Source: Anthoceros angustus
Taxonomy: Eukaryota; Plantae; Anthocerotophyta
Length of the DNA stretch: 64,000 nt
Reading direction: 5' to 3'
Assembly (NCBI GenBank): GCA_010909165.1
Contig: VJWM01000126.1
Location: 558,001-622,000 of the forward strand
The position numbers were made by a program, and so were the translations under genes. Positions within the stretch are counted from its first letter, which is position 1. The number at the start of each line of letters is the position of its first letter. The notes under the pieces were generated by a model. It was not told where the DNA came from. It ran no database searches and worked only from the letters and a program-made list of their open reading frames with translations. Positions 1,291-39,749 of this stretch are shown one piece after another.

Positions 1291-2348
1291 CTTCTCTCCG
1301 CACATTGTTCCTCCAAAACTTTATGTTATCGAGAAAAGCGCATCGTAATGGCATCCATAGTCCAAGGACCGGATATCAATCTGCAATGTTAGATTCCACA
1401 AGGAGTCTCGCACCCTCGAGTCTCATCCCAAAGCTTTGTACCAATGAATTGCAAAAAATCATGCTCAACACCGGTCTCTCATGTGCACCTGTGAATTGGT
1501 GTCACGCAGTGAATCACGGTAGAAAGCAATACTGACCATAGTTAGAATCTAACAATGAAACACTAACCACTCAAAGCTTGAACATCAAGCTTTGAATATT
1601 CTTGAACATCAAGCTCGAATATTCGAGCTTGAATATCGAGCTTGAATATTCGCTTGAACAAGATGCTTGAATATTCAGCTTGAATAACATGTGTGAATAT
1701 TCGTGGGCTTGAACAACATGTGTGAATATTCGTGCTTGAACAACATGCCCGAATATTCGAGCTAACACGCGATCTAAACAACAGCGATGACACACTCCTA
1801 TGGTACACTAGGAACTACCCGTAGGAAAACAAGATGGTGGCACTCGAATCTACTAGTGGAAAAGAGAACAGAAATTAAATCAACTTACTTGACACAGGAC
1901 ATATATCCTCTTCGGGAATATCATACTCCACATCAAAATTTCTTCGACACTTCACAGGATGAAGGACAAGTTTATCGACATCTTTTGCACAGCATGCGCC
2001 CTCCTTACATATCTGCACACCAGCTTTAACCCTCTTGCTCACGGTCTTCTTCAATACTTCAGGAATGGGGGTCCTCTGACCTCTTGGAAGGAGTGGAGCT
2101 TCCTTAGGCCCTTCATGAATCTCCCTGTCACAAGGGGAATCATCGCCATTGGCTTGACTATCACGCACTTCATACACCTCATCATAAGGCGTGACATTCA
2201 AATTTGGATGGACACAAGGTTTGTACACAAGGCATAGACCCCATAGGCACAAAATCAATCGCAGCATGGTGGACAAGGCGAGAATTGTGGAATTCCGCTG
2301 CGCAGGATCTAGTGGGAGGTCTCCCGGTGGACATTATTTAGCGGTCTA

Positions 2349-2521
2349 TGTCGGCGCGGCATAGCATGCCTACCTAGCACATCTACAAAGCTAAGTCACC
2401 AAACACCACTGCGATCTCCTTGGCCTTGGCCGGGAGCAACAATCTTAGCCATAAATTGTCCTTGGCCTATGACCAAGGGCAAGGCTACAAAAGGCTGGTG
2501 CCTAAGAGAGGCAGGCCGGGG
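2349..2521 (-). repeat. Terminal repeat B2 of Gypsy element 1
   Basis: Direct repeat of 3164-3327 (gcatgcctacctag...ggctggtgcctaagag). Confidence 0.85.
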
Positions 2522-2527
2522 GCTGAA

Positions 2528-3163
2528 GTGAAATCAAGCTGGAAAATTCTCCCAACGACAATGCAACGAACCACAAGAACCTCTAGGAGACAAAGACACG
2601 GCGAGGACAGTATGGGCTATTAGAACAAGACAAACATCAACAATCCAGAATCCATGGTGGGTGCCTACATATATAGGCAAAACCCCAGAGTTCTCGATGA
2701 AGTGTCCACCCATATCGATGGTGGGCACTTTATAATCCTACTTTCCTTGGCCTTGAAATAATAATATTTTATGTGTTTAACAGCCTATTCGTCCTTTTCC
2801 TTGATTTATGATTTTTATGTATTTTCTAATATAAATCTATCTATATATGCGTCATGCACGCGCCTTACATGCATAACCATGCATATAGATTGCATGCGCC
2901 ATGACACATCACGCCACATGTCCACATCACATGTCATCCTTCATCTCCATACGTATGCATACATGGCACACATGCATACATGGCATATACATGCAGGCCA
3001 TCCATGGGCCATGTACATGACATCATCAAGCACTTCAGCGGGGCTTATGCGAGATGCTCCGATCGATATCTAGTCATTTCGGCATTCGGGCTTATGCCGG
3101 GATGCTCTAGTCGATATCGATCATAGAGTCTTAGGTGCTCTGTTTCCCATCGACAAGCATGCA
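2528..3163 (-). repeat. Terminal repeat A2 of Gypsy element 1
   Basis: Direct repeat of 13110-13759. Confidence 0.88.
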
Positions 3164-3327
3164 TGTTGCGCCGCGCATGCCTACCTAGCTGTCTACAAAG
3201 CTAAGTCACCAAACACCACTGCGATCTCCTTGGCCTTGGCCCGAGCAACAATCTAGCCATAAATTGTCCTTGGCCTATGACCAAGGGCAAGGCTAAAAAG
3301 GCTGGTGCCTAAGAGGCGGGCCGGGGT
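3164..3327 (-). repeat. Internal repeat B1 of Gypsy element 1
   Basis: Copy of 2349-2521 that abuts A2 at a CA|TG junction. Confidence 0.85.
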
Positions 3328-3449
3328 CGACCCACAGGAAACTTGGAGGCCTAGCCACGGTTTCCCACAAAATTGTCTAGACCATCTTGGCCTAGAAAAC
3401 ACCGCTACCAACGTCCCCACCAGCGAGCGTAGCTTGTCCAACAGCGGTG

Positions 3450-4900
3450 GTTACGAGGAGGAGGAATGGCGTCATCTTCTAGATCCTCATCATCGATGGG
3501 TCTTCTTGTGCCTCTGCTTAAGTAATCTCACCGGGCGCTTGAATCGGAGAGGCATCCTGTTCTTCCACAAAGCGCTTCTGTGCATCGAACTGGCTGAAAA
3601 CAGGATGTACGCCATCCTGTCCAGCATCCATGTCCCGACTGTAAGCTTCCTGTGTTGGATAATTGAAAAACGGTAACTTACAGGAAGTGTAGATGTGCGG
3701 GCTGGCGAGCCTCCTGAGACAGTTGAAAGCATTCTTCTCCTCTCGAGTCCAAGCACGCTGATCAACATGAGGGGTCCTCAGCTTGTTGGTCAGAATGTAA
3801 AACTGCCGAGGCCACCCTACCACATGATGCCCTGTCGCAGATGGTGGAAAACTCGAAACCACTCTTTGAGAAAAATCAAACGGCGAGGGTATGTGTCTCC
3901 CCAGTCAACGAACTCTGCTGGCAACCTCATCCCATCAAACCATTGATGCATTTGGAAGTGATGCTGCAACTTCCTCCATGCACCCTCTGTATAGCTTGTC
4001 CAGGTCCAGGGCAAACGCTTGTGACCCCGGCGCTGGAGCTCAAATAAATCCCGATGTTCCGTGGGATAATGCTCCACCCTACTGTCATGATGCTCCTCAA
4101 CATACAGTAGGAAGATGTGAAGCTCGTCATAACTTGCAGGTGGAATACCTCGTTCCGGGTCATACTGGCGGGAGTAGAAGATGCTCCACTTACCCGCATC
4201 TTCGTCATCCACGAATTGGGGTCCCATCACCGCAAACCTTGCTTGAGTTGGCGGTCATAGCACACCACGGAGGCATTCCAATATCTCTACCTCGCTGCGA
4301 GACCTCCTCCATGGGCTGCATGCGGTGAGAACTACCGCCCTAGGTGCAACCACGAATTTTCAGCACGTGAAGGCCGACATACATGCTGTACGAGTAGGAT
4401 CGAGGTGCGCTCCGGTTGCCTTGGCGGTGGCGGTTGCTCCGCTCTGTGCGGCGTGGTGTTCTCCTGCCGTCGACGGGCCGACCGCTCCTTGATTGGGATT
4501 GCCTCAAACTCCTGCGGCTTTCCATGTTCGCCGACAAAGGATGCTTGCGATCGTCCCCTCTTGCGCTTGGTTGGTGGCACTTCCTCTCGGCGCTTCACCT
4601 TCCGTAATTGTGGATAGGCGGCTTTCGCCTTCTCCTATGCACGTATGAAACGGGCGACCATGGCGCTCCCTATCCAGCTCAAGCAATGAAACCACCTTTA
4701 GAAAACGTGAGGAATTCTCAACCAGCCGATCGATCTGTGCATGCAAAGGTTCCTCTTCCAAAATGAGATGCTCCCTCGCATGTGTGCCCAATTTGCTCTC
4801 GTTTCCGGTAGGAATTAGACCCTTGTCGTGCCTCCTCATGTCTGTAATTCCTCTTTTCACAATTCCTTGCACATGCGAGCGGCTTCTAACAACTCATGCG
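3450..4900 (-). pseudogene. Extra sense-strand ORF 3' of pol, unknown Trp-rich product, frameshifted
   Basis: Chain of overlapping minus-strand ORFs (4504-4872, 4332-4598, 3817-4230, 3518-3862) with protein-like composition. No family recognised. Confidence 0.45.
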
Positions 4901-5054
4901 CCCCTTAGCATGTGCGGATCCCATTTGTGAATTTGGCCCCAAGCATCTTGTGTCCTTCTTCTTTGTACTGTCAAGCTGCTGTTTGACTTCCAACGTGTGT
5001 GAATTTAAGACAACCTCGGTACCACCTTACGAGAGCCACGTTCACACTTAGCAC

Positions 5055-5185
5055 ATTCTGATGCTCACATAGCCATTCTCCTTGGAACACATCCGATCTT
5101 GGTTTGAGGCAAAGCAGATGGTAACCACGGTTACATCACATAGCAACATGAATTCTTCGGTTGTGTCCACACTCCTCCGCAACCG
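5055..5185 (-). pseudogene. PHD finger at the integrase C-terminus
   Basis: Across frameshifts it reads EEC...EEFMLLCD(x)CNRGYHLLCLKPRSDVFQGEWLCEH, fitting the C4HC3 PHD pattern including the conserved W. Confidence 0.75.
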
Positions 5186-5449
5186 TCTGCTGGTGGCGTC
5201 CGGTCGAGGCACGATTCGTGTATCCGGTCGGGCAAATGGCATGGAGCCAAATGCTTCATGTGTTCCTTGCACCTTCGCCATCTCTTCCTTCAAGTTCAAC
5301 CACACCTTGCTCACCAACTCGACAACTCTCGATAAGCCTCCTGTGCGACATCTAACGTGCTTGCGGCTGTTTGCAAGTACACATAATCTCGGATGCAAAC
5401 TTGCGGCTTTGGGCTTCCACGAGCCCCAGCGTATAAGCATACCTCGGTG

Positions 5450-6260
5450 GTCCGATCTTTGGGCCACAAATTGTCCATAGCCATGGGAAGAATTCTTTGA
5501 AATACTTACGCTCGGCTTGAACTTGCGCACACATTTGCATCTTTGCTCCGATCAAGGATGGAGTAAGTGTCCTTCACCACATTCGGCAACAACTGCGTTG
5601 CGTCCGAATAACAAAAAGTATGGTGAAACTTCCAAGAGCGCACCGACCTGTACCCCAACACGATGTAAGGGAGCAATTCATCCCAACACTTGGGCTCCAC
5701 GATGTCGATTTCCTTAGTGCATCCTTGAAGGTTTGCACTAGCCTTTGCCGCCATCGGCTGTGGATGATCCTCGATGTCCTCCCGTGATCAATGAGACTCT
5801 GTCAGCAAGGTGGAATTCACCTCGAAACTCGTTACCACAGTGCAGCACCTCTGCGCACTCCCAAATCGGTGAGCACACTGCAGCTCTGCTGGTGTAATGC
5901 GAGGTTCTCGTGGTAAGAACTTCAACCCACTTAGAGAAATGCTCAATCATGACCATGCAATGTCGGTTACCTTGCTTTGTGAGAGGAAGCTCGGCATAAG
6001 GTCAACCGACCATCTAAAGAATAGCCACGATTGGTAGGGTGCAACACCACATCACAGGTGTTAAATCTAGCTTTGACGCATCACATGCCAGCCCCACCAC
6101 CTTCTCGACATCGCATACATCCCCGAGTCGTACTCTTCAACATGTGGTGTGTCCTCTTCACACCAAAGTGGCCAAGGGTTTCGTGCACCTTGGTCACTAT
6201 GCCCACTCTTTCCTCGGGACTTGGTACTTTCCTTACGAGTTCTCCTTACGCGATGTGACT
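5450..6260 (-). pseudogene. Gypsy integrase (HHCC zinc finger and DDE core), frameshifted
   Basis: TLATLV/LGHFGVKRT, CDAS/CDV, RWSVDL, MVMIEHFSKWVEV, AEVL..GNEFRGEF, WDELLPYIVLGYR. Confidence 0.85.
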
Positions 6261-6479
6261 CACCATCTTCCCATGAGTATCGGCCACGCCTTGAGTTTAG
6301 CCAAGCTGCTTGATCATTCCGACGTGCCTTCCTTCAAGAATCAGTGGCTTGAGGATGTCTCCAAACATCCACGGACTCAGACATGTCCTTCTTCATGATC
6401 ATCTATCACGGCCGCCAGTGCCATGAAGCTGCTGGGTGCACCATCTACGTGCCCCTCATCTGCCGAGCTCTGTGACATC

Positions 6480-7560
6480 CTTGTCACTTTCCAGTGATTC
6501 TGCTTAGCCCATCGCATTGTGATGTACCTTGCACGCCACATGCACGATCTCCATATCGTACTCGAGACGGCGCCACACGGCTAGCTTACCACTCAACTTC
6601 ATGTTGGTCATCACCAATGAAGTGGCGGTGATCTGTGACCGATTAACGCCTTCCATACGGATAGACCACGAAATGCAGCGCCCATACCGCAGAAGACACT
6701 CTCCCTCATATGAGGAGTAGTTCACTTTGAGTTGTTAGATCGGCTTGCATAAGCTATCACTCGCTCAACACCATCTGCACCATGTTGTGACAACACCGCT
6801 CCAATTCCCGATGCTCCATGCGTGTCTGAGTGAAAGGGTGATCAAAATTCGGCTGGCGCAGCTTCTCTTGCGGTCCGAAGATCTTGCCAAGCCAACTCCT
6901 GGTCTTGGTCCCATTTCCACACAATGTCTTTCTTCAACAGCTCATACAGAGGTTTACATGTGGAACTGAGGTCCTTCATAAACCTCCTGTAATAGTTCAC
7001 CAAACCCAGGAAGGCTCTAAGAGCAGCTACATCCTTTAGTCTAGGCATTTGCATCACGGCCTGCACCTTAGCCAGTTGAGGCATGATGCCTCCTGGTACT
7101 ATCTCATGCCCCAGATACTCGATCTGGAAAGCAAACTTGCATTTCTTAGGATGAGCTTTCAAACTGAGCTTGTGACCTCATATCTCTAGATGCTCCATAT
7201 GTTCTTGATTGTCTCACGAAGACCGGATATCATCTATGTAGCAACGCACAAATGGCGACCCTACTCTAGATCCGATTCTTTGGAAATATATAGAAGCATT
7301 TTCAGCCCAAAGCGGCATTGTCTCCCACTCCCAAAGCTGGTCCTTCCCCAGTGTCTTGCACTTGTCCTCTTCAATCACAATTTGGTTGAAGCACAGGCGG
7401 AAAGCGGTAAAGAACTTTGCCTTACCTATGGCATCGAAAATCTCGTCTGGAGTAGGCATGGGGTACCGCTCCATAGGAGTCACCTCGTTTAGAGGTCGGT
7501 GTCGCCACACATCCTCCTGTCCTTCCATTCACCGTTCTCATCCTTCTTGAGCGGTAGGGC
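6480..7560 (-). pseudogene. Gypsy reverse transcriptase and RNase H
   Basis: ORFs 7214-7528, 6842-7162 and 6504-6725 with YIDD, FLGLVNYYRRF and NYSSYEGECL. Confidence 0.92.
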
Positions 7561-7780
7561 GATTGACATATTGAGAGCTTGATTTTCTTATCAACCCGCT
7601 TGAACAACTCTTGACGGCGTTTGTCAACAATCTCCCATTCTCCGAGGCGGTGCCTCCTTAAGACGGGCTCTTCATGAGTCGTCACTACTTTGAACTTGAT
7701 CTTCTCATACCTGACTCCTTCGAATGCAAAAGCACCCTTGTTTTTCTCAAGCATGTTGATGATTTTCTGCTTATCTTCCG

Positions 7781-8790
7781 GCTCACATCTTACGCAATGT
7801 GCCATACATGAACCTCTTCGTCACACTCTTGGTGGGCGATTCGGTATCCACGGCCATCTTGAATCTCTCCCAGACTCATCTTCCTCTGCCTTAGGAACCT
7901 CTTTATCCTGCGTAGTTGGAGGAAGGCTTTCGCTTCCTTCCACGCAAGTTGGAAACATGCTGTGCTCCCACCACCTCGGTGTACAAGTCAAATGCCTCCA
8001 AGCATCCGCATCTTGCAGTTACGTGATGCCCATGGTCCGAGTGTCCTTCTTGGCAAAGCCCATCGCTTGCTCGCGTTCCTCAACATTGAGCTCTCAAGCT
8101 CATTCCCTTCAAATCGAATCACACCATCTCCTCCGGCGAAGGCATAAGATTGCGGTGTGCTCACGAGTTGGCCATGCCCTTGGCTTCCCCTACTCGATTC
8201 ACGGGGTAAAATGGCAACTTGTCCATCCTCTTCACTGTGAGCACCTTCCCAACTCTAGGATGTCATCCACAACCTTCCGCTTGAGTTGTCAAATTCTGTC
8301 TTTGTCGAGCACCTCCGGTCCGACCACATTTGTCCGATGCTGCTGTGTGCATATGAGCCACCGCGCGTCCATGATCAACTCATTGCGAACCACGCCCGAA
8401 TCTCTTCATACGGGGCCCTAACGGTACGCGTTTGTCCATGGTCGCACACATTCTCCGAATGTACCAACATCGTGGATTCGCAATCTGGACTTCTCGCGTG
8501 ATTAAATGCGAGCTCGGCCAGCAACGCCTTCACCTTTGCCTCACTGCTTGCCGAAAATGTCTTGCATTCCCATCCCGCGATCGGCATATCCACCGGGCTT
8601 GACAAGGCTTCTAGCCGCTTCCCAACCGAGTTCACGTCAGGCAGCTGCTCGCGACCTCGAGCGCTTCCTCGCTCATAGTGTTGGATCGCTTGCGAGAACA
8701 CGAGATTCGACCCTAGCGGCTCGAATCTTCTCATCCTTTTCCACGCGGTATATTGCCGTATCTTGGCGCCACCCGCAACACCGCTTCCGG
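7781..8790 (-). repeat. ~1.0 kb tandem duplicate of 8791-9785 (second copy of DNMT motifs II-X)
   Basis: gctcacatcttacgcaatgtgcc occurs at 7781 and 8791; ORFs 8286-8501 and 9280-9495 are identical. Confidence 0.85.
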
Positions 8791-8974
8791 GCTCACATCT
8801 TACGCAATGTGCCATACATGAACCTCTTCGTCACACTCTTGGTGGGCGATTCGGTATCCACAATCAATCTCTCCAGACTCATCTTCCTCTCTTAGGAACC
8901 TCTTTATCCTGCGGTAGTTGGAGGAAGGCTTTCGCTTCCTTGGCACGCAAGTTGGAACGCCGCTGTGCTTCACC

Positions 8975-9900
8975 TCGGTGTACAAGTCAAATCCAAGCAT
9001 CCACACCTTGCAGTTACGTGATGCCCATGGTCCGAGTGTCCTTCTTGGCAAAGCCCATCGCTTGCGTTCCTCAACATTGAGCTCTCAAGCTCATTCCCTT
9101 CAAATCGAATCACACCATCTCCTCACAGTGCAGGCATAAGATTGCGGTGTGCTCACGAGTTGGCCATGCCCTTCTTCCCCTACTCGATTCACGAGGGTAA
9201 AATGGCAACTTGTCCATCCTCTTCACTGTTGTGAGCACCTTCCCAACTCTAGGATATCATCCACAACCTTCCGCTTGAGTTGTCAAATTCTGTCTTTGTC
9301 GAGCACCTCCGGTCCGACCACATTTGTCCGATGCTGCTGTGTGCATATGAGCCACCGCGCGTCCATGATCAACTCATTGCGAACCACGCCCGAATCTCTT
9401 CATACGGGGCCCTAACGGTACGCGTTTGTCCATGGTCGCACACATTCTCCGAATGTACCAACATCGTGGATTCGCAATCTGGACTTCTCGCGTGATTAAA
9501 TGCGAGCTCGGCCAGCAACGCCTTCACCTTTGCCTCACTGCTTGCCGAAAATGTCTTGCATTCCCATCCCGCGATCAGCATATCCACCGGGCTTGACAAA
9601 GCTTCTAGCTGCCGCTTCCCAACCAAGTTCACGTCAGGCAGCTGCTCGCGACCTCGAGCGCTTCCTCGCTCGGTAGTGTTGGATCGCTTGCGAGAACACG
9701 AGATTCGACCCTAGCGGCTCGAATCTTCTCATCTTTTTCCACGCAGGTATATTGCCGTATCTTGACGCCACACTGCAACACCGCTTCCAGGCCACTGCTG
9801 ATTCCCGAGCTCCAACAAATGGATGCCTTGACGCCACACCGCAACACCGCCTGTGCCATCGCCGATTCTGGCGAGCTCCAAATGGATGCCTTGACCCACC
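8975..9900 (-). pseudogene. DNMT3-like C5 cytosine methyltransferase domain inside pol
   Basis: Motifs in canonical order across frameshifts: I GIHLLEL..GISSGLEAVLQCGVKI; II YTCVEKD; III LPDV; IV VDMLIAGWECKTFS; VI WYI.ENV; VIII MDA..GSYAH; IX-X LNVEERE.AMGFAKKDT..GIT.LQ..MLG.FDL. Confidence 0.82.
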
Positions 9901-10319
9901 TTCCATCGTACTAGAGCATCGTCGATGCGTCGATCTCCCGACTTGGCAGGCCTCATACCTGGGATCGACCTCTCAGGACATGTGTCTGTGAGATTCCACG
10001 GTCGATCCTCCTTCCTTCGCTGGTTCTCTCGAACCCTCGCTTGATCCAAATATTCTGAGCGCACAACCTTAAGCACACCCTTCTGCTCTCTTGGCTTCGG
10101 CATCTCCAGAGAGGATAACTCCTGCGTTTCCTCCCACATCTCATGTCGATGCTCACTCGAGCACTGTGGCAATCATGGCCCGTCATCCTCGTCGCTCTTG
10201 CCACCACTCCTATTCATCCTTAGAGGAATTCGCAACATGCGTGAAATCTCCTCTCCACCAGAATGGTCTGTAGAAAGCTTCAGCGTGCAAGGGATCAACC
10301 CCATGGCAGGACGGTGAGT

Positions 10320-10570
10320 TCCGTCCGACCCAGCAAGACATCATATGTCTTTGCCGTGACCAAACATCTCACTTCAACGATCTTGGCATCCTTCGTGCGA
10401 GCTTCAATTCAATCTTCACGGGCCTCCTCGTCATTCCCGACTTCCTTGGTACTGCGGTGGTGATGTTCACGTCGCTCGGAACGAGCTTGTGTCCGTCTGA
10501 CTTTAGTGCCTCCTGCACCGTGCTCCCGAGCGGATCCGCTCCGTGTCTACAAATGCGTTCTCGGAGCATA
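10320..10570 (-). pseudogene. Aspartic protease of Gypsy element 1
   Basis: AFVDT(G)ADP with one indel at ~10545 and VTAKTYDVLLG at ~10330-10360. Confidence 0.7.
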
Positions 10571-10574
10571 GCCA

Positions 10575-12800
10575 TCAAAGGTCACGTGCGTCCGTGTTGT
10601 CAATCATGGCAACACCTCCTTCACCTCGCTCCTCTGGCATCAGATGCTCGCCACACAAACTGGCCATACTAGGAAGAGATCCTGCGGATTCGAGCTCCTT
10701 TCTCAGCCATTCTCGCATGATGTTTTTGAAGTTGTTGCCCTTCACTCCCAGATCCACAAGACTTACTGCAGGCACCTCCATGGCCTTGTCCAGCAACGCC
10801 TCAACGTCTCGACCTGATCTTGACACCTTCTGTGTCGTGGAGTTTTCCTCGACCTGCCGGAAACTCTCCGGCATCTTGGTCGATTCCCGTTCCGGCACTC
10901 CCTTCGCAGTGACGCCTTCACCAAAGTCAACAACAGTCCTTTTCTTTTTCTTGCGCACCGCCATCATGCCAAACGCCTCATCTTCGCCAGTCGAGAACAA
11001 AATCCTCGCTGCATTCTGGCCATGTTGGCCATCTCCTTCTTGAGCTCCTCCACTTGCCCGAGGAGAGCCTTACGACTTGGGCCCTTGCCCTTCTCCTTCT
11101 CGGTGATGCAAGCTTGGGCTTGACTGGATGAGCTTCCCAACACGCTGCCTCCATGTGACCCCATCGCCACAAGACTTACAGCTTCCTTGCCCTTGGACCA
11201 CGGCTTGTAGTCGCATTCCGCCTGCTCCGGCATCGGATGCTCGCCACACAACCGGCCATACTAGGAAGAGATCCTGGATTCAAGCTCCTTTCTCGCCCAT
11301 TCTCGCATGATGTTTTTGAAGTTGTTGCCCTTCACTCCCGGATCCACAAGACTTCTGCAGGCACCTCCATGGCCTTGTCCGAACGCCTCAACGTCTCGAC
11401 CGATCTTGACACCTTCCGGTCGTGGAGTTTTCTCGACACGGAAACTCTCCGGCATCTTGGTCGATTCGCTCCGACTCCTTCGTGGACGCCTTCACCAAAG
11501 TCAACAACTTTTCTTTTCTTGCGCACCGCCATCATGCCAAACGCCTCATCTTCATGAGTCGAGAACAAAATCCTGCTCTGCTGGCGCCATGTTGGCCATC
11601 TCCTTCTTGAGCTCCTCCACTTGCCCGAGGAGAGCCTTACGACTTGGGCCCTTGCCCTTCTCCTTCTCAACCGATGCAAGCTTGGGCTTCAGCTCTGGAT
11701 GAGCTTCCCAACACGCTGCCTCCATGTGACCCCATCTGCCACAAGACTTACAGGCTTCTTGCCCTTCGGACCACGGCTTGTAGTCGCCAACGCCTTTGCG
11801 CTCCACGATCCGCCACACTTCACACCGCTTGACTGCATTGTTAGTGGCCTCTCCTTGGCACATGTGGTGCATGTCACGAGGATGCTTGCTCCCGATCTTG
11901 GTACCTTGGAACAAACACGAATTCCGTGTCCTCCGGACGTCTGCGAAGGGCCCTTCACGACTCGTGATCCTCCAAGTAAGCAGCTTCGCATCTCCTTTGA
12001 GCACCTTCTCGGCAATTTGATAGGCGTCTATCAAGCGATATCTCTCTCCCATCGCTCCATGCGAGTCCATCACCTTCCTTCTTTGTCGCGGGCAATGCGC
12101 CATGAAGATCTCGGCAGCCTCCTCATCGTCTTCACATCCGTGTCTTCCACCAGAACCTTCAATCTGAGGTAAGATGCACGCAATGTCTCATTAGGCTGAA
12201 GAAAACCTCGACAATTCTGGATCTTTTCGTAAGTCAGGAAACATGGTGGTTAACTTGGCGAACATCAAGTCCACCAGATGCTCGAGCTTGTCCTCGTCAG
12301 TAGGGGGTGCAGTCGAACCAGCCCTCTTGGCTGCCTCGTGCACTGCTTCTCTTCTCTCGGCCACCTTCGGATCCCGGCCTTCTCATCTCGTAATACATTA
12401 GAGCCTCACCGCAAGGTAGGATGACATCTTCATGAACGCCATCCTCCGAGTGAACTCGTCCTTGTATTTCATCTTGTTTTCCGCCATTGCCCAACGAAAC
12501 TTCTCCTCGAAATCGCAAGAGACATGCTTCCATGTTTTCCTGTGAAGACATCGTTCTTACTTGGTGTGAACTCAAGCTCCATTCTTGCAGACTCTCCGCT
12601 CCAATCGCCGAACTGTCTCCTTGTGACTGGGGCGTTGTCTCTGTATTGTTCCGGTGTCCTCTTGAATGGCGAGTAGTAGACGTCGTGCACTTCTCCGATC
12701 GAAGGCAGAGTGTCCTCGTCCACCACGATCTCGGGAACACCATCAATGGTTACTTCTCCTATGCTCGACCACGCACGGATGTTGTCAAATGGCAAATTGT
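10575..12800 (-). pseudogene. gag of Gypsy element 1, including a ~0.6 kb internal duplication (10640-11215 / 11235-11785)
   Basis: CCHC knuckle CKSCGRWGHMEAACW in ORF 11552-12103; upstream-most coding position in the element. Confidence 0.75.
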
Positions 12801-13109
12801 TCCACCGTTAGCCCAACCAGCGAAAAGTACATCCACCGCCTCTATCCACAAAGCGGCTCCAGGGCGTATGCGAGGCTCTTCTCAGACGCTACGCTCGGCA
12901 ATCGTGAGACTACCACACCTAAGGCTGTATAATCAATGGCGAAATTCATCCATCGAAAAACATCAGCCTATCTCTCGGTGTTATACGCAACAACCTTCTC
13001 GGATCGCTTGTTGTCTGGATGGTGGGCGACTTCCGCCTCTTCCTCCAATCTCCGGTAGCGTCTCCTCCGATCCAGTATCTTAGTCCCCAACAAGAGGATT
13101 GTTGATGTG

Positions 13110-13759
13110 GTGAAATCAAGTGGAAAATTCTCCCAACGACAATGCAACGAACCACAAGAACCTCTAGGAGACAAAGACACAGTGAGGGGCGTATGGCTCT
13201 ATTAGAACAAGACAAACATCAACAATCCAGAATCCATGGTGGGTGCCTACATATATAGGCAAAACCCCAGAGTTCTCAATGAAGTGTCCACCCATATCGA
13301 TGGTGGGCACTTTATAGTCCTACTTTCCTTGGCCTTCGAAATAATAATATTTTATGTGTTTAACAGCCTATTCGTCCTTTTCCTCGATTTATGATTTTTA
13401 TGTATTTTCCAATATAAATTTGCTATCTATATATGCGTCATTGCACCGCGCCTTACATGCATATCCATGCATATAGATTGCATGCGCCATGACACATCAC
13501 CTGCCACATGTCCACATCACATGTCATCCTTCACCTCCATACGTATGCATACATGGCACACATGCATACATGGCATACATGTCATGTGCAGGCCATCCAT
13601 GGGCCATGTACATGACATCATCAAGCACTTGACGCCGGGGCTTATGCGAGATGCTCCAGTCGATATCCGATCATTTCGACATTCGGGGCTTATGCGGGAT
13701 GCTCAGTTTCGATCCTTAGAGTCTTAGGTGCTGCTTTCCCATACAACAACGGCATGACA
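13110..13759 (-). repeat. 5' terminal repeat A1 of Gypsy element 1, with TATA-like CCTATATAT at ~13251-13259
   Basis: Matches 2528-3163 and is not adjoined by a B segment. Confidence 0.88.
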
Positions 13760-15620
13760 TCTACGCTAAATAATGTTTGCACAGGGTGTCCTACACCTTG
13801 GCCCTGCATCCCCAATCTCCACTAGCCCTAGGCGAGGGCATATGATGCCATGCTTGTGTGGATATCTTGCCATGAAGAGGATACCGCCATCTCAATGACC
13901 CACTCGGCATTTTCTTCAATTTTTCACCCCTAGATGCGTGTGCAAGCTTCAATTTTGATCGTGGCACCTCGTGGCAGCGATCGTGGCACTTTGGACACCT
14001 CGAGTCTTCTCTAGATGTTGGCAGCGATGCAAGGCTCACGCCACGTCTCGCTTGCCTCATCACGACCTGCATCTCGCCAGGGACAGCATATGCCGTGAAA
14101 ATCGACATGTGGGGCACAGCCTTCCCATGCAAACGTGCAGCAGCAGCAGGTACAGTGGCGCCATCCCCATGTGCTGCAAGTGTAGCGGCGCCATCCCCAT
14201 CCCCACGCGCTGCAGGTGCAGCGACGCCATCTCTTTTACTTGGCCCTTCGCCCCTACCTCTACACCTGCCACGAGAAGATTCCCTTGCCCCTTTCCCACC
14301 GGCCCCACGTCCAGGGTCCTCCTCCTGTACCACCCTGGACGGTCCTGAATGATTCTTGCTGAAGATACATAGGGAGACTTCCCACACTTGCCTCATCCTC
14401 GCACAATACTGCTAGTGCATTCAACGACATATTGGCTCTCAGATTCTACATCAGATATCTCTTTCTCGAGAATGTGAGTTGCCTCCGTCCTTTTGGATTT
14501 GAGCTTGATCCATTTCTCCCTCAAGCGTGCACCACCCAACATTGTTTTTGCAGCCAACAAGTTCTGCTATTCACACCTGCGTGAGTCCTCAAGCCCCATA
14601 CCACCAATCGGGCATCGACAGCATCTCCACATATGAGGCTGTTGTTGCCAAGCGTCTAATGTCATGTGCCTCCGCTTGAAATATCGGCTTCTTGTGTTTG
14701 GGCATCCGAGACGTGAGTTGTGAGCGGGCAGCACACAAATCAAGATATACAGCCATGCCTGACAAGCAAGCAAGAAGCAAGCAGACAAAGGTGGAGTATT
14801 GTGTTGAAGTTCTAGCTCTGTCGTGACCTAGTCTTGCCTTTGGATAGTGTCGCCACTATCCACGTTGTAAAACCCGGATCGGATGCACTCTTTACGATGA
14901 AGTGGGCGCTATGAACCTAAAGGCAAAGACATGTCGTTGAGGAAGACAAGGTAAGCTACACGGTGAATACAGCAGAGAACTAGACCCGCTCAAAGCTTTC
15001 GGAAAAGACGGTTCGGAGCAGATTAGGTTTTAGTCGGTTTTGTACAATGGTGGCGGTTGGAGAACTCTCGTGAAAAAAATGGTTGCTAGCATATATGGTA
15101 CAAAGTATGCGAAGCATTCGGTTTCCCTTGCGGGAATGCCAACAGCAACGCAATTTTGTTTCTCCGTCTCGAAATCTTGAAAGGCACGCTTCAGACAATG
15201 CGGGACAATGTTATACACCGGTCTAATGATGAAACTATTGCCTCGGCTTACAAGTCTTCCTTGCCAAGTTTGCTGCACTGTTTGTTTCCATCGAATCCTC
15301 GAGAACGAACACGTGCAAAATCAGAACGGCTAAGTATCGACCTAGGTAGATTGCAAAATCCTAAAAAGTGCAGCACATCACCATCAATGGTGCGGTTTCA
15401 TTTGGTCTACTTGTGACTCATTTACTTTATAGCGCTCCAAGAACACAAAGTCCAAGTGCAAGGCATAATTCCGACAAGCGGCATAACTTTGATAAAATTG
15501 CGGAAGAATGGAGTGCAAGTCGTTCGATTAAGATCCTCCACACTCTAGCGGAGGAATCACCATGCCTCGGTGAGAGCTCCAAGTTGAGAGGAATCACCAC
15601 GCCTCCTTGTGAGAGCTCCA
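13760..15620 (-). pseudogene. Decayed multi-exon Cys/His-rich gene of the array unit (unit 1 part; continues at 1291-2348)
   Basis: Homologous to 36830-38720; split by Gypsy element 1. Confidence 0.4.
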
Positions 15621-16284
15621 AGTTTAGTCGCGGAGCGTGTGCAGAATAGATTATTATTCCTAATCTAGTAGGTTTTCATATAGAGATGCATATAGTGTAG
15701 TGGACAAGGTCAAACACTTGGTCTCGAGTTTGAATCGATCTCGCGCACATGTCGACTAATAGATTGTTTCTCCTAATCAAATAGGGTTTCGTATGTATTG
15801 GTGTTCAGGGGTCGTCTCTGAGAGACATGTAAGTGTAAAATATTATTTCCAATTAAACACGTTTCCGCAAGGATGGTATTAGTCTGGTGGATAAGATCAT
15901 GCACTGCAAATAAGCGTTTGAGGGTTCGATGGTATTAGTCTGGTGGATAAGATCATGCACTGCAAATAAGCGTTTGAGGGCAAAGAACGCTTATTTGAGG
16001 GTTCGAGTTCTTTTCCCTACAGTCCATATGCTATGTTATGGCTCAAAACCCTATGTATGTACTTGGGTACCAATGTATGCTACTTGGGTATCTCCAATAC
16101 TACAGTATTACTTTTAATTTTATGAATTATTGTATAGAGATGAAAATTTTTATGAATTATTGTATAGAAATAAAAACATTTATGAATTATTGTATAGAGA
16201 TGAAATTAGTGTTGTGGTTGGTGTTATGTCCTATGTATGCGATTGTTTTTCAAGGGGGTCTAGACCCCCCTTTCGAATCGCTCA

Positions 16285-16735
16285 AGTGTTAGGGGCTAGT
16301 TGCTTGTTGGCTATGGAGAAGCCCACCCCCGGGGTCCGCCCTATTGGAGTGAGAGGCTTTTTTGCGGCTTGTTAGTCGCAGCATAGCCATCTTGCTTCGG
16401 GAGCAATTCCAGGGGCACTTAGTCCACACTAATTCGGCATCGCCGCTCCGGGGGGGTGTGAGTCTGTGGCTTTTGGCGTGGGGGCGATTATGGAGTCTCA
16501 TCCTGATTGGCTCGCACTGCAGGTGGACGTCGAGAATGCTTTTAACACGGTCTCCGGGGTGGCCATTTTTGACGAGTTCAAGGACGTAGGTGGACATGTA
16601 CAGCTTGCCAGTCTTGTCCCTTTGGTTCGCTCTTCCTGAGTCTCCTTCCAATCTCTACTATCGGCATGGGCCCTTGATCGAGGGGTTTGTTGGCCTTAGT
16701 AGTGGCACAAGGCGGGGGATCCATTGGGATTGTTT
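16285..16735 (+). mobile_element. Non-LTR (CRE-like) reverse transcriptase fragment
   Basis: LLAMEKP..GVRPIGV, RLVSRSIA, SHPDWLALQVDVENAFNTVS and GTR(Q)GDPLG across frameshifts. Confidence 0.75.
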
Positions 16736-19700
16736 TGTTGATGTTGTTTGCACGATTTGGAGTTTCTCGACGCTTTTCTAGTTCTGTAGATGGCTCTTAA
16801 AAGAAAACCCTCAGGGCGTCTTTGGACCGGGCAAGAAACAAGGTTCTATGGCCAAAGTCACGGCTAAGTACACACGATAACGTATCAAACAACAATTCTT
16901 CACACTACAACCCACGCGGATGATGGTAAAGTTGATGGTGTCCTTGTGCACAGTGAGGGAACTTATTTGGTGCCTAAGAAGGCCACTCCCAAACCGCCAA
17001 GGCACTTCTCATCCAAGAAGGATGCCCGGCGTGCAGCTGAATTTGTTCAGAAGAGAAGAAGGGTGGACACCCGACCTGTGCCATTGGTGGAGGGCCGCTT
17101 TGGAGATTACTAAGCGTGTTCTTGGGGTGAGAGGGGTTTGAGTATGTTGGTGAGAATGACCATTTGATAACCGATTCCAAAGTTCTTAGCATGAGAGTTT
17201 GTCTGATCCGAGAAATGTATGTAGTCTTTGTACAACAAGATGCCTTATAGGTTGGTCAATTTTCCATGCATCTTGGTTCCTAACCCTACGAGACCGATCA
17301 GAATGTCTTGATTTGTTTGAGAGATTGAGGAGTGCGGATCTTGAGGATGATTTTGCTATGGGCATGGAGGAAATTGATGACGAGGCTAACGAGAACCGGG
17401 TTTGACCTCTGTCCCCGGTGCTGTTAATGATGCTTTGAGTGGTGGTGAGGACAAGTCCAAACGCCAAAGTAATTGGTGCAGTCGTCTTAAGGCTTTCATG
17501 AAAGTCGGTGTTTGGGGTTAGGATAGCGCAATAGAGGACATCCCTTATAAGGACTTAAACCTTATATTGATACCCTTTTTCCACGAAGTTTGGGGCTTAA
17601 AAAACAACTCTATATTCTCTCCGGAAACATAAGCTCTGTACCCTTCTTTTTGTTTCGTCTCTCATGTAAGTTGTTGAGTTTGACCTTTTGTGCAGGCTGA
17701 TGTCCTTCTCTCGAGGATTCAATCGAATCTTAGAGAGAAAGTGTATTCTGGACCAGAGCCGGCTTGGATCTAACATACCTATGATAAACATGTTTCACGG
17801 GATATTCCATGGGGCTTAGGCACTGGTCTCGTCGATGAAAATCGCAAGGACCTTAGAAGCTTTCATGTTGAAAGGAGGTTGTGATATCGATGATGATGAG
17901 CGCATACTATCCCATAGAGACCATCAATGTTCTTTTGGGTGTGGTGCCCAAAATGGTACTTCTCTTGTCAGTGTTTTGGGATGATTTTGTTGCCTTGTTG
18001 TTGCAACGCTTTTGCCTTGCCTTGGTATCGACATTCAATTGTCTCGGTTTGCGTATTTGCATGAATCGATTTGGAGTTCGTGGAGAGGAGTTACATAACC
18101 TTTAATTAGGGACTTTTCATTTTCATCACGGGGACAATTTGTACAGTATATTTATTACGTTGTGTTTCATGATTTTTGTTGTGATGTAATCTTGTATAGT
18201 GTTGACGCTCGTTTTTTGTCACAGATATGAAGATATCCTAACAATTTGAGGATATCCTAACAATTTGAGGACTTGCAGATATGACCGTTCGGGGAAAGCA
18301 AAACAGGCAGCTGCAGCAAGGGTTCTAGTTCCTAGTGAACGAAGATCTTCCAAGGAGTTGCTCAATGAAGAACTTACTCGGATGCAGGATGATGCGGGGT
18401 GCTTAAGTCAAGCCACGAATATGACTCGAGTAGTATTTGCCGATTAGCGGAAGATGTAAGTGTATTCATGCATGAGGAAAATCTATTTGTTCTTTGAAAA
18501 TGTTTTGATATTGTGAGTTATGTACGGCTGCGGTCAATGTCCCTTACAAGTGCAACGCATTGAGAATGTTAGCAATAATAAGTTTGTGGATGTTTTCCAA
18601 AATCGTGTCTTCATTCGTAATGTGTTCTCGACTCCCATTTTAATTGTCGTCTTGGCCGTTGCTACCCCGATATCCATCATGAAAGTAGACCAGTTCTAAC
18701 TTTTCCCTTATGTAGTGATACTCAACAGCTATATGTTTAGTTCTAGAGTGAAAAGCGATTTCGTGCAAGTGCAATGGCACCACTATCACTAAACAAAGAT
18801 GTAGGCTTAAGTTGAGGATGGTGAAGTTCACTCAAAACTAACTGGACCACACTATGTCTTTAGAACCGAGGTTAGTACCAGCTCAGTTATTTGACAAAGC
18901 TATAGTAGGTTGTTTCTTACTTGACCAGGATATTGGTGCTCCTCCCAAGAGTAATACATACCCGATACAGATTTTCGTGTGTCGGGGTCACCAGCATAGT
19001 CGGCATCAGCATATGCCGTTAGAGTTAATGTGTTGATAGCTGGTGTATGCTTGAACATCAGTCCTGTGTACATAGTGCCTTTAAGGTATCTGAATATACG
19101 CTTAACAGACATCCAGTGCTCACGTCCAGGGTTCTCCAAGAATTGTGAGCAGGAACTGACTTCAAAAGATATATCTGGTCTCGTAAAATTGCATAAATAT
19201 ATTAGAGTGCCAACAGCATGTCGGTATGGAACTGCTGACATTTCTAGCTTTTCTTCAGCTGTTTTGGGACTCATATCTGAGGTAAGCCTAACACCACTTG
19301 CAAAAGGTGTGGGTGCAGGCTTTGCATCCTCAAGTCCAAATTTAGCTAAACTCTCCTTAATATACTTGGTTTGAACTATACTTAGAGTCTTATTACCTCT
19401 ATTTCGTATAATATTAACACCAAGTGCATATGTCATTTCTCCTAGATCGGACATCTCAAATAGAGTCCTAAGCCATGCTTTAGTTTCGCTAGGAGAGTGA
19501 GGGAGTTTGTTGCCATAAAAACATCATCAACATAAAGTAGAAGATAAAATATATCATTGCGGATATTAGGATGTACATACAAGCATCACCGGCTTTGCTT
19601 AAATCCTCTCCCAATAAGTTGTACATGTATGGTTAAATTCCAATTCTTGTTGCTTAAGGCCATACAAACCTTTGATGAGTCGGCATACCCAATCTTCTTT

Positions 19701-22700
19701 GCCTTTGACTTGTAACCCTCGGGTTGTCTCATGTATATTTCCTCTTGCGGCCCATACAAATATTGTCTTAACATCCATCATGTGGAGTTCAAGATCATGT
19801 TGGGCACATAAGGCAAATATCATTCAAGTGTGGCAAATTTGGCTCTTGGGGCATAAGTGGCCCAAGGTATGTAATCTAGACCAGAATTTGTGTAAACCTC
19901 TACTAGGCGTGCCTTATACCTTTCTATAGAACCATCTCCTTTTCTTTTAATTTTGAATACCCATTTGCTGGTTACTATCTTCCTACCCCTAGGTGGTTTG
20001 ACCAATTCCATGTAGAGTTATTAACTAGGGAATTATATTAATCTCTGACTACCTTCCATAAGTCTTTTTCAGGAGAAGAGAAAGCTTGTTTTAAGGTAAG
20101 AGGTTCTTCGGGTCTATAGTTGCCTTGTAGCACTTGAGAATAAAGTGATATAGGGGTATAGGATCATCAAAACAGCTAGGTATCCTAAAGGAGGTTCCTT
20201 CCAACTGCAGGACTGAGATAGTAGGTCGGGATCTAAGGTTGTACCTTTGTGCAGTGCATCATCCACGGGAGCGGGATCAACGAGGATCTGGCTCCACAAT
20301 GTCATCCTCCGAGGGTCATCAAACTCATCATCATGAGTGTCATGGCGCCTCTGCTGGGATGTCAACATCGTTGAGTTGAGTTGTACCGTTGTGGAATAGA
20401 TGCTAACTCCTCCTCCTCCCGCATAATAGGTTCAACTAAAGGAACACGAAGCGGGGAATGGGAAATGGAGTGAAATAATCGGATCATCAAAATAAGAAGG
20501 GTCAATGGTCTCATCAAGAGGAGGACCAAGCCTATCGCTCCCTGTGGGGAAAAGAGGTAAGACTCATGAAAAGTAACACTCCGGGCGTATAAAAGTTGCC
20601 TTGTAGAAGGGTTGAACAATTTGTACCCTTTGATACCTTCGTGTAGCCAATGAAAAGTGTACTTAGCTTTGGGATCCAACTTCTTACGCAATGCTTTGGG
20701 AATAAAAACATATGCGGGGATCCAAAAATTCAAGGTGGTCAATAGAAGGCTTCTTGCCAATGAATGCTTCATATGGAGTCATACCTTGAAGCTGATGTAG
20801 GCAATCGATTCATGAGATAGGTTCTTTGTAGGAGGGCCTTTGCCCAATAAGCCTTAGATAACTTAGCTTGTACCAATAAGCAACCGTGATCTCTTGGAGG
20901 CGTAGATTCTTGTTCTCACGCCATTTTGTTGAGGAGTGTAGACAAGCGTAAGTTGTTGAGCTATACCTTCACTCGACAAAATCCTCAAATTCGATGATGT
21001 AAACTCTCCACCATTGTCGGAACGTAAGGTCTTGAGTTTGTGATCCGTAAGTCTCTCATTTCATGTAGTCCTTGAAGAAGTGAAAGGCATCACTCTTGTT
21101 TTTCGGGATGTAGGAAAAGACAAAGCGAGAGAAATCATCATGAAGGTCAAAAATATCTACTACCACTAAAGGAGGGTGTAGACAAGGGTCCACAAATGTC
21201 TGTGCACTATCTCTAAAGGTGACTTGGCCCTTTGTGGAGATTTATTTTGAAAGGCTCTTGATGTCGTTTAGTGAGGACACAAGATTCGCACCAAGGTAGG
21301 TGTTCAACCTTTGCAAGGCAAGGGTTCTATATAAAGCTCCCTTAGACATTTGGATTAATTTTTGACTATTAGGATGACCAAGGCGACAATGCCAAAGCAT
21401 GGTTTGGGTAGGTGTCGGGTTTGGAATGGCAACATTAGCGTAATGGGTGGCTCCCACTTGTCGACAATCTATAGAGACCATCATCTAAAGTGCCTGCAGA
21501 TTGTATAGTTTCTATCACTTATGAAAGAGAGAAGACAACTATTCGCATAAAGGATCACCCGAGTGTGTTCTTGACAAAGACTTGCGGTGATACTAGATTC
21601 TTGCACATTGAAGGAACATGGAGGACTTGATGAAGATGAAGAACGACCGAATCACACTTGAATACAATCAACCGACACCCGCAATGGGTAGGTTGTGATC
21701 ATCTCCGGAGGACGGGCCCGATGTCCTGTGGTGTAAGACTCAAAAGAGTTTGTTGTAACAAATATGTGAAGTAGCTCCTGTCTAAGTACCATGAGGTATT
21801 GGAGGGCTTGGAAGAAGCCAAGCACATGGAGCACGCTGGAGTTGAGGAAGATTGTTTCTTCGTTGCAATGTTAGCTCCAGGTGGGGCCTCCTTGCGAGGT
21901 TCCCCATTCTTCTTCTTACGACAATCCTTTTCCATGTGATTTGGGATTCTGCACCAATTACATATAATCCCAGTCTTCTTGTTACCTCTTGCAGGTGTTG
22001 AAGAAGATGCCTCTCCATCATGGAAAGTATGTGCAGGATATGGGGGTCTGGAAAGTAGAACCTCGGCCTCGCCTCGTCCTCTTCCTCTACCCTTTGTGAA
22101 TACATCACTGCGCTTGTTGGCTGGAGTGATGATGACGTCGCTTGCCTCCTCCTGTAGCAATGCTCCAATAAGTTCGAAACACGATGTCGGCTCTTCATTT
22201 GGATCTTCATCTGCAGCTTTTCGACATTGCGAATCACGCATTTTGAGTTGTAATGAAAGCCCTATAAGAAGGTGGCAATGAAGATAAGAGAATGACGTAA
22301 GCCTCCATCTCCGAGATAGGTACGCCATTGAAGATTCCAAATGGGATCGTGCCAATCGAAATGCATTAACATGATGTTCGATGGTGTCGGACTCCTTCAT
22401 TGAGAGGTTGCGGAAGTTACGTGAAGGCGCAACAATACTCATTACATCTCGAGATGAATATAATTGAGCAAGGTGAGTCCACATATCCTTGGAGGTCTTT
22501 GCGTGCGACATGTCTCACCATATGTTGAGAAAGTCCACGACCAATAAATCTTGTGCCTTCTCGCCCAGGCGTCCCGGAAGGTTGAAGTTCACGTTCAAAT
22601 CGGGCGTGTGGCCTTGGAATTGATCCATCGACGATGCCCCAAAGGTCTCTTTGCCGCAAAGCTCCTCGCATTCTCAATGACCGATGTCATAATCCCTTCC

Positions 22701-23576
22701 ATTGAATCTATCTTTCTCTTTGCTCACCATAATGATAATGCAATGAAGTGTTAGCATTATCATTACCCAATGGGGAATTAGGAGCTTTGTTCTTCATTAT
22801 TGATCACTCCAGCCATTGTAGGTGATTTAGAGGACTAGGCCTCGCGATCGACCTCTCATCTTCTCTATTGCACGAAACTCTTCTCTTGCATCATAATCGA
22901 TTCGGATGATGATAGCATGCTCTCAAATCTCTGCGCATTATCAACCTTAGAGAGAATAGACAATTTTGTCCTTAATTCAGATAATTCTCCCTTAAGATCA
23001 AAGGATTGGATTCTAAGAGTTGCTAATTGACTATCAATTTCTTGAAATCTAAGAGTTTCTATGCTATTTTTGTCTTGCGACTAGAAGATACTAATACCAT
23101 TCAAATTTGGGATATGTTGGAGCTAATTCTAATGCCTTGACGTGAATTGGACTAAAACTTCTAGCAAATCACGTCTAGCTAGCTTGATAAACTTCCCTTG
23201 ATCCGGTTTAGAAATTAAAATAGATGCAATGAAGTTTGCTATACAAGAGGAGGTTTCTACTATCTCTCCCTCTATAGCTTGTTGTCTTCTATTGCTTCTA
23301 TGTGTTGGGCTCCTAATTTGTTCTTGTTGTCTTGCAGACTACTTCTCTTCTTAACTCTATGCCTTCTCCTTCTAAGGGAACACAAATCCATGGAGGAAGA
23401 ACAAAGAATTAGTGCATAAAAGCATTGTTAGAAGAGAAATGTTAGCATAAAAGAATGCATGCAAAGATAGCAATTCTAGGATAAACACAATCCATCTAGG
23501 CAAATGCTAGATTAGAAAGTGTCTCCTAGATAAGCTACTTAGATGCATGAGGATGCAAGCAAACAAAGAGCAAGTG

Positions 23577-23588
23577 TGCTCGATACCA
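23577..23588 (-). promoter_or_regulatory. tRNA-iMet primer-binding site
   Basis: Minus strand TGGTATCGAGC versus consensus TGGTATCAGAGC. Confidence 0.85.
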
Positions 23589-23811
23589 TGATGAGAATCA
23601 TACACAAGCTCTAGCAATATGTGTTGCATTACATTCATAATAGAAAGTACATGCCTTTATGTAGGCAAGGTAGTTGTAACCAATAAGTGGTTGTAACAAC
23701 TAACCAATTAAATAACTACTAAAGAAACTACCTAGAGCCCTAAGGACTAAATTAATTATTAAGTCCTAGGTGCCCTAGTGAAGAGTGCCCTAATAGTAAG
23801 CTATTTTATCA
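23589..23811 (-). repeat. Copia 5' LTR (223 bp)
   Basis: TGAT...ATCA termini, immediately followed on the minus strand by the PBS. Confidence 0.88.
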
Positions 23812-23863
23812 TGATGTCCTTCTTCGAGGATTCAATCGAATCTTAGAGAGAAAGTGTATTCGA

Positions 23864-39700: not shown

Positions 39701-39749
39701 TTTTGTTGATGTTGTTTGCGATTTGGAGTTTCTCCGGCGCTTTTCTAGT

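Follow-up and report, generated by a model that had tools for sequence, protein, structure and literature searches.

A Gypsy-type retrotransposon of a hornwort with a DNMT3-like cytosine methyltransferase domain between protease and reverse transcriptase

The window, i.e., the whole 64,000-nucleotide stretch of Anthoceros angustus DNA analyzed here, harbors an 11.4 kb Gypsy-type retrotransposon (2349..13759, minus strand) in which a DNMT3-like C5-methyltransferase domain (DNMT) lies between the protease (PR) and the reverse transcriptase (RT), as it does in intact relatives. The reading favored here, to which a probability of roughly 0.55 can be given, is that this DNMT is packaged and would methylate the element's own cDNA, inside or just after the virus-like particle, a role already proposed for element-borne DNMTs (de Mendoza 2018, PMC5890265, partial text). 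Directly observed are the domain order, homology and fold of the family, the ends, target duplication and repeat layout of the element, and purifying selection in three related loci.

The coding part of the element, read along the minus strand, starts with gag (10600..12750, limits approximate), which was recognized by tblastn to the gag of relatives and by a weak zf-CCHC_4 match (E 0.13), with a CCHC knuckle near 11700-11760; a tandem duplicate within it (10629-11214 and 11222-11787) is probably an assembly error. Gag is followed by a frameshifted aspartic protease (10264..10600; score 77 in a frameshift-aware alignment to the protease of the relative P0330), by the DNMT, and by a pre-RT segment with the RT (YIDD) and RNase H (RH) domains (6500..7820). 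The DDE integrase (IN) with its H2C2 zinc-binding part (5230..6300) gives a weak rve match (E 0.16) and aligns to P0330. Behind it lies a frameshifted PHD finger (5067..5200), to which the integrase end and PHD of P0330, a protein carrying PF00628, align over 5318-5067 with a score of 122. The segment between pol and the 3' repeats (3330..4950, no strand assigned) gave no Pfam family and no informative Atlas match, and 3514-4987 is skipped in the high-depth contigs of the short-read runs X2 and X3. The order gag-PR-RT-RH-IN with a DDE integrase is that of Gypsy elements, and the Gypsy-type assignment made in the sequence-only reading is supported by the Pol alignments and by the RT tree described below.

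The DNMT is present twice on the same strand. Copy A (8990..9830) holds motifs I-X in unpermuted order, with GWEC as motif IV at ~9555-9570, and copy B (7984..8790), which lacks motif I, is contained in a 1-kb tandem duplicate. Each copy has 13-14 frameshifts and one stop, with no open frame and the motifs spread over three frames. The frames being too broken, scans of fragments remained empty (no PF00145 match in 30 window ORF fragments; nothing relevant in a PDB sequence scan); a homolog search with one window fragment yielded none among 425 candidates. By frameshift-aware alignment with an X at each break, a profile of 34 pre-RT relatives (i.e., with the DNMT ahead of RT) scores 127 bits on 9808-9017 and 118 bits on 8787-7984, aligning to both copies over nearly the whole profile length, vs 14-16 bits for six shuffles and 17 for the plus strand. 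Single relatives compared with the window score 205-219 for three of them and 131-135 for two others, ten shuffles giving 44-59. The C5-methyltransferase motifs listed at first are indeed co-linear and far above chance, but they had been taken from both duplicate copies, the second of which is without motif I. Likewise, the unusually long interval between protease and RT does hold a DNMT3-like domain, but holds it twice through the 1-kb duplication. Motif IV is Glu-Cys (E-C), not Pro-Cys (P-C), in both copies; the Cys and the EN of ENV are readable, but a break at the R-x-R of motif VIII prevents a confident reading there.

The duplication itself spans 7775-8796 and 8784-9795, which are 94% identical (20 substitutions, 19 indel events). 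A further 64-bp repeat (9832..9895, minus strand) doubles motif I once more; it is missing from the short-read contigs, and its joint (9831-9895) is skipped in all four short-read runs. Short-read contigs are 5-10% longer than the matching window stretches (e.g., 934 vs 852 bases over the DNMT), and the summed depth of the two DNMT copies in X2 and X3, which are one sample, is about that of gag and not double. The same variants occur at <1% of the X2/X3 depth in run X5 (organism B) of the same study, which is not counted as a second species. Given the indel-rich duplicates, the longer short-read contigs and the X2/X3 depth, the DNMT tandem duplication, like most of the frameshifts, is probably an error of an unpolished long-read assembly rather than a true duplication of this particular copy. 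Elsewhere in the window, too (22809-24932, 27126-29645, 56433-59317, and others), there are many head-to-tail duplicates, 0.4-1.5 kb in size and with about as many gaps as substitutions. GC-rich and short-unit tandem arrays are located at 25000-26900 and 56400-58400.

Relatives are numerous. An RT search gave 71 matches, two of which, volvocine Pol proteins, carry a DNMT-like stretch after RNase H; this stretch led to 576 clusters at 50% identity (E up to 0.001; 150 of them listed), and an alignment-based search added 113 matches, some of them named, including one from Sphagnum. No Klebsormidium-named protein was among the matches of the RT and alignment-based searches, and a locus scan with P0263 found no relatives in 23 stretches. 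The annotated plant proteins P0232, P0253 (Marchantia) and P0297 (Sphagnum) are gag-protease-DNMT ORFs of the family, and the Marchantia element ORF Mp_8g17980 is named DNA methyltransferase in UniRef. In P0041 (Pleodorina) and P0024 (Volvox), a degenerate or partial DNMT-like stretch, missed by Pfam, is located between RNase H and integrase. Checked against PF00145, as the sequence-only reading had proposed, relatives score above the curated cut-off (8 of 10 in one scan, 6 of 6 in another, and 3 of 4 named proteins in a third). A profile of 31 relatives retrieves DNMT3A best (E 3e-17), then DNMT3B/C, DRM, and M.HhaI. The model of the relative P0168 (pLDDT 92) best matches DNMT3A/B (E 5e-21, TM 0.69-0.71), with an identity of 22-24%. 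The family domain is thus predicted to have a DNMT3-type fold, on a model of P0168 and not of the window's own domain, and the DNMT3-like identity first proposed is upheld by both profile and fold.

Regarding the active site, motif IV is Glu-Cys in 127 of the 226 domains long enough to count, Pro-Cys in 80, and other in 19. The Cys, the ENV glutamate and both Arg of motif VIII are all kept in 215 of the 226 (125/127 E-C, 76/80 P-C, 14/19 others), while some members, e.g., P0041, have neither the Cys nor ENV. E-C is found in both branches of the family (9/36 pre-RT domains and 70/107 post-RH domains, the latter lying behind RNase H), it co-varies with neighboring positions (L to T, V to T), and most E-C domains keep the SAM-binding glycines. 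The change from PC to EC with a retained Cys, correctly seen in the window at first, is, on these alignments, a stable and common family state with its own co-varying neighbors and not decay; the co-variation looks like that of a retuned active site. This common state, the probable duplication artifact, the PHD finger and the split direct repeats described below all go beyond the first reading.

The position of the DNMT in Pol varies. Among 247 proteins, it is found behind RT or RNase H in 112, behind gag/protease or before RT in 37 (eight of which have RT following in the same ORF), only before integrase in 40, and alone in 58. All four full-length relatives scanned display PR-DNMT-RT-RH-IN in one ORF, two of them with a PHD finger. 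More generally, intact relatives show gag-PR-DNMT-RT-RH-IN(-PHD) in one frame and without introns, an integrase-PHD association being common in the family. Gypsy-7a_cRei of Chlamydomonas is another Gypsy element with a PHD finger, and an active one (PMC9940879). The window has the order of these relatives, including the PHD after the integrase. As the first reading expected of other copies, the domain is in frame with pol (4 of 4); the in-frame fusion is seen in relatives only, the frame of the window copy being broken. In short-read contigs, the protease region runs into motif I and the end of the DNMT into the pre-RT segment, with no single contig spanning DNMT-RT-RH-IN. One contig of run X1, perhaps an RNA run, continues from the DNMT into the first pre-RT codons, which independently confirms the order and, together with the relatives, the position between protease and RT originally assigned to the domain.

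This X1 contig then jumps to the linker before the integrase, with a deletion of ~6399-7769 (RT-RH) in which the frame is kept by a hand reading of the joint. In X2 and X3, mismatches at 6398-6416 (depth 292 and 373) fit the same deletion. A gag-PR-DNMT-IN derivative therefore exists, which has lost RT and RNase H and kept gag, DNMT and integrase, and it is probably a common form. The lower depth of RT (76-107 vs 355-640) hints that it is commoner than the full form, contig depth not being copy number. In P0302 (Haematococcus), protease and DNMT are associated without RT in one predicted protein, whose DNMT groups with post-RH members; this is perhaps another RT-less derivative or a gene-model effect.

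In the metagenome contigs L001-L003, a single TAG separates gag-PR-DNMT from RT-RH-IN-PHD. In all three of these loci, which cover the spot, the TAG is in frame between DNMT and RT and is followed by CAR-YYA (L001 5083-5091, L003 4661-4669, and L002), which we take to be a readthrough context. Lying ahead of the stop, the DNMT would be made at Gag level, and such expression is likely in these relatives; in the window, the element strand shows no TAG/TGA/TAA-CAR-YYA. Three pairwise comparisons among L001-L003, which are not independent and come from P-C relatives rather than from the hornwort family, give dN/dS values of 0.10-0.12 for the DNMT and 0.43 for the tail that follows it, RT-RH and integrase having 0.03-0.04. 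The DNMT is under purifying selection in these three loci, with a dN/dS about three times that of RT.

The RT tree (86 rows, FastTree) unites all DNMT-bearing elements (99) and separates them from other Gypsy elements; their group contains the post-RH members (99), the pre-RT members including the window (98), and two outlying pre-RT rows. The DNMT tree was a quick IQ-TREE without bootstrap. Its 86 rows comprise all pre-RT and named domains and every third post-RH and pre-integrase domain, context-free domains being mostly left out and host plant DNMT3 and Klebsormidium sequences left out altogether. The window falls with 35 of the 36 pre-RT rows (support 98), together with Closterium, Marchantia, and Sphagnum, on a long branch (1.74) that is attributed to sequence errors. 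Named post-RH members are chlorophytes. One old acquisition together with one move of the domain between two Pol positions would fit these trees, and the lineage is likely as old as the chlorophyte-streptophyte split, as judged from trees in which most rows are without taxon and sampling was by DNMT similarity.

The limits of the element are set by an empty site in a host repeat, at ~48408-48440. On its own strand the element begins with TGTCA and ends with CGACA, and it is flanked by a 4-bp target-site duplication, TCTA (13760..13763 on the 5' side, 2345..2348 on the 3' side). TG..CA ends with a 4-bp duplication are as in Ty3/Gypsy elements (Metaviridae, 4-6 bp). The insertion host is one copy of a long repeat unit (1291-2348 plus 13760-17731), other copies of which (35803-41437, 47412-53271) have the empty site. 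A copia-type element at ~18500-22600 (minus strand; RT, integrase and gag-like ORFs by eye) is also inserted in the repeat unit. Five U2 snRNA genes (minus strand; 31554-31751, 33722-33914, 43213-43409, 45378-45573, and 60606-60804) sit in a repeat unit of ~11.5-11.7 kb that recurs several times in the window. With regard to the host, a PLS-class PPR gene with a DYW domain, a KP-type start and a GRP end is found at 61513-63703 (plus strand; internal duplicate 62070-62784). DRH and GRP are hornwort variants of DYW:KP (PMC9478123, partial text), and by its sequence the window gene is likely the hornwort variant of candidate U-to-C editing factors, in agreement with a land-plant host. As a single gene, it makes a hornwort the likely host.

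Within the element, the repeats are arranged as A1-coding-B1-A2-B2, i.e., as split, DIRS-like direct repeats. All are on the minus strand: A1 at the 5' end (13110..13759) is 92% identical to A2 (2528..3165), with 22 substitutions and 22 indel events, and B1 (3166..3326) is 94% identical to B2 at the 3' end (2349..2527). The A1/A2 divergence gives no age since it is no larger than the noise between artifact duplicates. The ordinary layout of two complete LTRs, a tRNA primer site and a polypurine tract was not found in the window element; by eye, no TGG primer site follows A1 and no purine tract precedes B1. DIRS, PAT, and Ngaro elements encode a tyrosine recombinase and are usually without target duplication; such an identity is rejected here in view of the DDE integrase and the 4-bp duplication, and no recombinase match was obtained in 3330-4950, a segment with broken frames. 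A Troyka identity is rejected as well, the element having neither CG..CG ends nor a 3-bp duplication.

This layout joins the 3' end of the element to its 5' end at an internal junction (3155..3176, minus strand), which is garbled in the window. As the window is prone to false duplicates, outside support for the layout was sought. An X1 contig with a loose end at 2364 reads the junction as CGACA-GC-TGTCA, and CGACA-nn-TGTCA, whose chance occurrence is about 0.01 per 9 kb, is also present in L001 (8655-8666) and L003 (8234-8245), ~430 bp behind pol. The spacer is GC or GT overall in the hornwort contig, L001 and L003. The junction contains CG and, in two of the three cases, the palindrome CAGCTG, which is broken by the GT spacer of L001. 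L001 and L003 are collapsed contigs without long repeats and show the junction, not the full repeat layout. The ends are compared in three elements, no post-RH member among them. Inverted CA/TG ends with 2 bp between them are reminiscent of the junctions cut by some DDE enzymes, such as those of IS3/IS30 circles and foamy-virus LTR junctions, and by this analogy the integrase may use the CGACA-nn-TGTCA junction.

Methylation of the cDNA could proceed as follows. Gag-Pol would be packaged, and the protease would free the DNMT or leave it bound to Gag or RT. The internal B-A junction would act as the template restoring both ends during reverse transcription, so that under this proposal no tRNA primer site would be needed next to A1. 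The DNMT, with SAM and its Cys/Glu/Arg-Arg set, would mark the cDNA, and the integrase, guided by the PHD finger, would cut at the CA on either side of the 2-bp spacer and insert with a 4-bp stagger. The marked new copy would resemble old methylated transposon DNA and might be at once quiet or tolerated. In favor of this reading are the intact catalytic set of the family, purifying selection, likely Gag-level expression, retention of the DNMT in the RT-less form, the place of the window among pre-RT members in both the RT and DNMT trees (98 and 98), and the de novo methylation of CG in yeast by a related Symbiodinium Dnmt3 (PMC5890265, partial text). Against it are the replaced Pro before the catalytic Cys, the broken frame of the window copy, and the absence of CpG depletion, the CpG observed/expected ratio being 0.84 in the element (0.96 in the DNMT part) vs 0.77 in the window and 0.59 in the neighboring copia-type element. 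KnitGypsy-Dnmt3 from Klebsormidium nitens gave no methylation in yeast, a result that its authors call inconclusive, and also counts against (PMC5890265, partial text). CHH methylation is nearly absent from the vegetative tissue of hornworts (PMC10952607, partial text), so that an enzyme writing CHH would not be active there.

Alternatively, the domain would be a non-enzymatic or weak DNA-binding module, a pseudo-enzyme that helps to package, coat or chaperone the cDNA. Glu-Cys does replace Pro-Cys in more than half of the domains (127/226), members such as P0041 have lost both the Cys and ENV, Gag-level expression in relatives fits a stoichiometric role, the Klebsormidium domain was without activity in yeast (PMC5890265, partial text), and the element shows no CpG loss. 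However, the full Cys/Glu/Arg/Arg set persists in 125 of the 127 E-C domains, most of which keep the SAM-binding glycines, and their co-varying neighbors suggest retuning; this explanation is judged unlikely. It would be improbable that methylation is aimed at CGACA-nn-TGTCA or at the cDNA around it, leaving the internal junction uncut and preventing self-integration of the cDNA. The junction is conserved in the hornwort contig, L001 and L003, with CG inside and CAGCTG in two of them; an integrated copy keeps it ready-made, presumably a hazard with a DDE enzyme; and the RT-less derivative retains DNMT and integrase together. Yet L001 breaks the palindrome, only three elements, none of them post-RH, have had their ends compared, and LINEs of Symbiodinium carry DNMTs without such a junction (PMC5890265, partial text).

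A DNMT that works chiefly on host DNA, either in trans or at and near the insertion site, with the PHD finger bringing the complex to chromatin, appears improbable as well. In host DNMT3 enzymes the catalytic domain does come with a histone-reading ADD/PHD module, the family often has integrase-PHD, and post-RH members place the DNMT beside the integrase, but in the pre-RT branch it is far from the integrase and, in L001-L003, is encoded ahead of the stop, with Gag. Barely credible, and largely refuted, is an arrangement due to an assembly chimera or to a host DNMT3 fragment in a dead element. Tandem duplicates and indels do abound in the window, but short-read contigs bridge both borders of the domain, from protease to motif I and from its end to the pre-RT segment; intact relatives show an identical domain order and no introns, and by its RT the window element belongs with DNMT-bearing ones. 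That the DNMT methylates the cDNA of its own element is thus the preferred reading. A wider picture can be drawn, which is rather improbable as a whole: an ancient green-plant lineage, alive in hornworts and other bryophytes, with split repeats and a junction cut by a DDE enzyme, in which a Glu-Cys DNMT3 would shield both cDNA and junction and RT-less forms would keep the enzyme for integration.

What transposon-borne DNA methyltransferases do has been an open question since 2018, and their known hosts are hard to work with. With the family in bryophytes, methylomes and genetics become feasible, in hornwort tissue almost without CHH background (PMC10952607, partial text). According to the available text of PMC5890265, DNMT-bearing retrotransposons are reported in Symbiodinium and Klebsormidium only, and that of PMC6338049 (2019) holds that land plants such as tracheophytes have no methylase-encoding transposons; the relatives in Marchantia and Sphagnum contradict this printed absence, the emphasis of which is on tracheophytes. 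A 2026 preprint on EpiLTRs (bioRxiv 10.64898/2026.05.21.726589) mentions Gypsy-DNMT3 in 'streptophytes', its available part containing neither 'land plant' nor 'moss'. No report of a DNMT-Gypsy in bryophytes or chlorophytes was found in the literature outside subscription papers, theses and Repbase, nor in the available parts of PMC10952607, PMC11982613, and PMC9940879; a term search of the available supplements of PMC10952607, apart from Table S3, gave no DNMT names. What was a one-species curiosity thus becomes a lineage with no fewer than 576 protein clusters (50% identity), probably older than the chlorophyte-streptophyte split. For annotation, it matters that element ORFs are filed as host methyltransferases (Mp_8g17980). 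The Glu-Cys active site and the association of a DDE integrase with split repeats each raise a concrete mechanistic question.

Among known systems, host DNMT3 (animal DNMT3A/B, bryophyte DNMT3) shares the unpermuted catalytic domain, DNMT3A/B being the best profile and fold match, whereas the element domain is an intronless part of a polyprotein, only 22-24% identical to DNMT3A/B in P0168. Troyka elements (Kojima 2025, PMC12440569, partial text) have a Gypsy-like domain order and distinctive conserved ends, but these are CG..CG with a 3-bp target duplication, and the elements are restricted to animals, with ordinary LTRs and no DNMT. EpiLTRs of Euglena and Cymbomonas (bioRxiv 10.64898/2026.05.21.726589, partial text) are LTR retrotransposons with a DNMT and a chromatin reader; their DNMT is sister to DNMT4 and accompanied by DAM and a chromodomain, while the hornwort element has a DNMT3-like domain and a PHD finger, with no DAM seen. 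SymbioDIRS-Dnmt3 and SymbioLINE-Dnmt are retrotransposons bearing a C5-methyltransferase, the former with A-B-A-B repeats and two alternative domain orders, but they use a tyrosine recombinase or a LINE endonuclease instead of a DDE integrase and live in dinoflagellates (PMC5890265, partial text). The closest design is that of KnitGypsy-Dnmt3, with Gypsy domains, a DNMT3-like domain in Pol, no introns, A-coding-B-A-B repeats and purifying selection (PMC5890265, partial text). The window element works like it in combining such a domain in Gypsy Pol with DIRS-like split repeats, a likeness of features and not of sequence kinship. The two differ in host, algal vs land plant, and in the Glu-Cys motif IV of the hornwort. 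KnitGypsy-Dnmt3 is described as having been acquired within the K. nitens lineage, whereas the relatives found here come from chlorophytes as well as streptophytes and show two domain positions; its termini, target duplication and junction, and any readthrough or RT-less derivative, go unmentioned in the available text (PMC5890265). To a design of the KnitGypsy-Dnmt3 kind, the present analysis adds the junction, the RT-less derivative, the TAG readthrough context in three relatives, and the post-RH position in chlorophytes.
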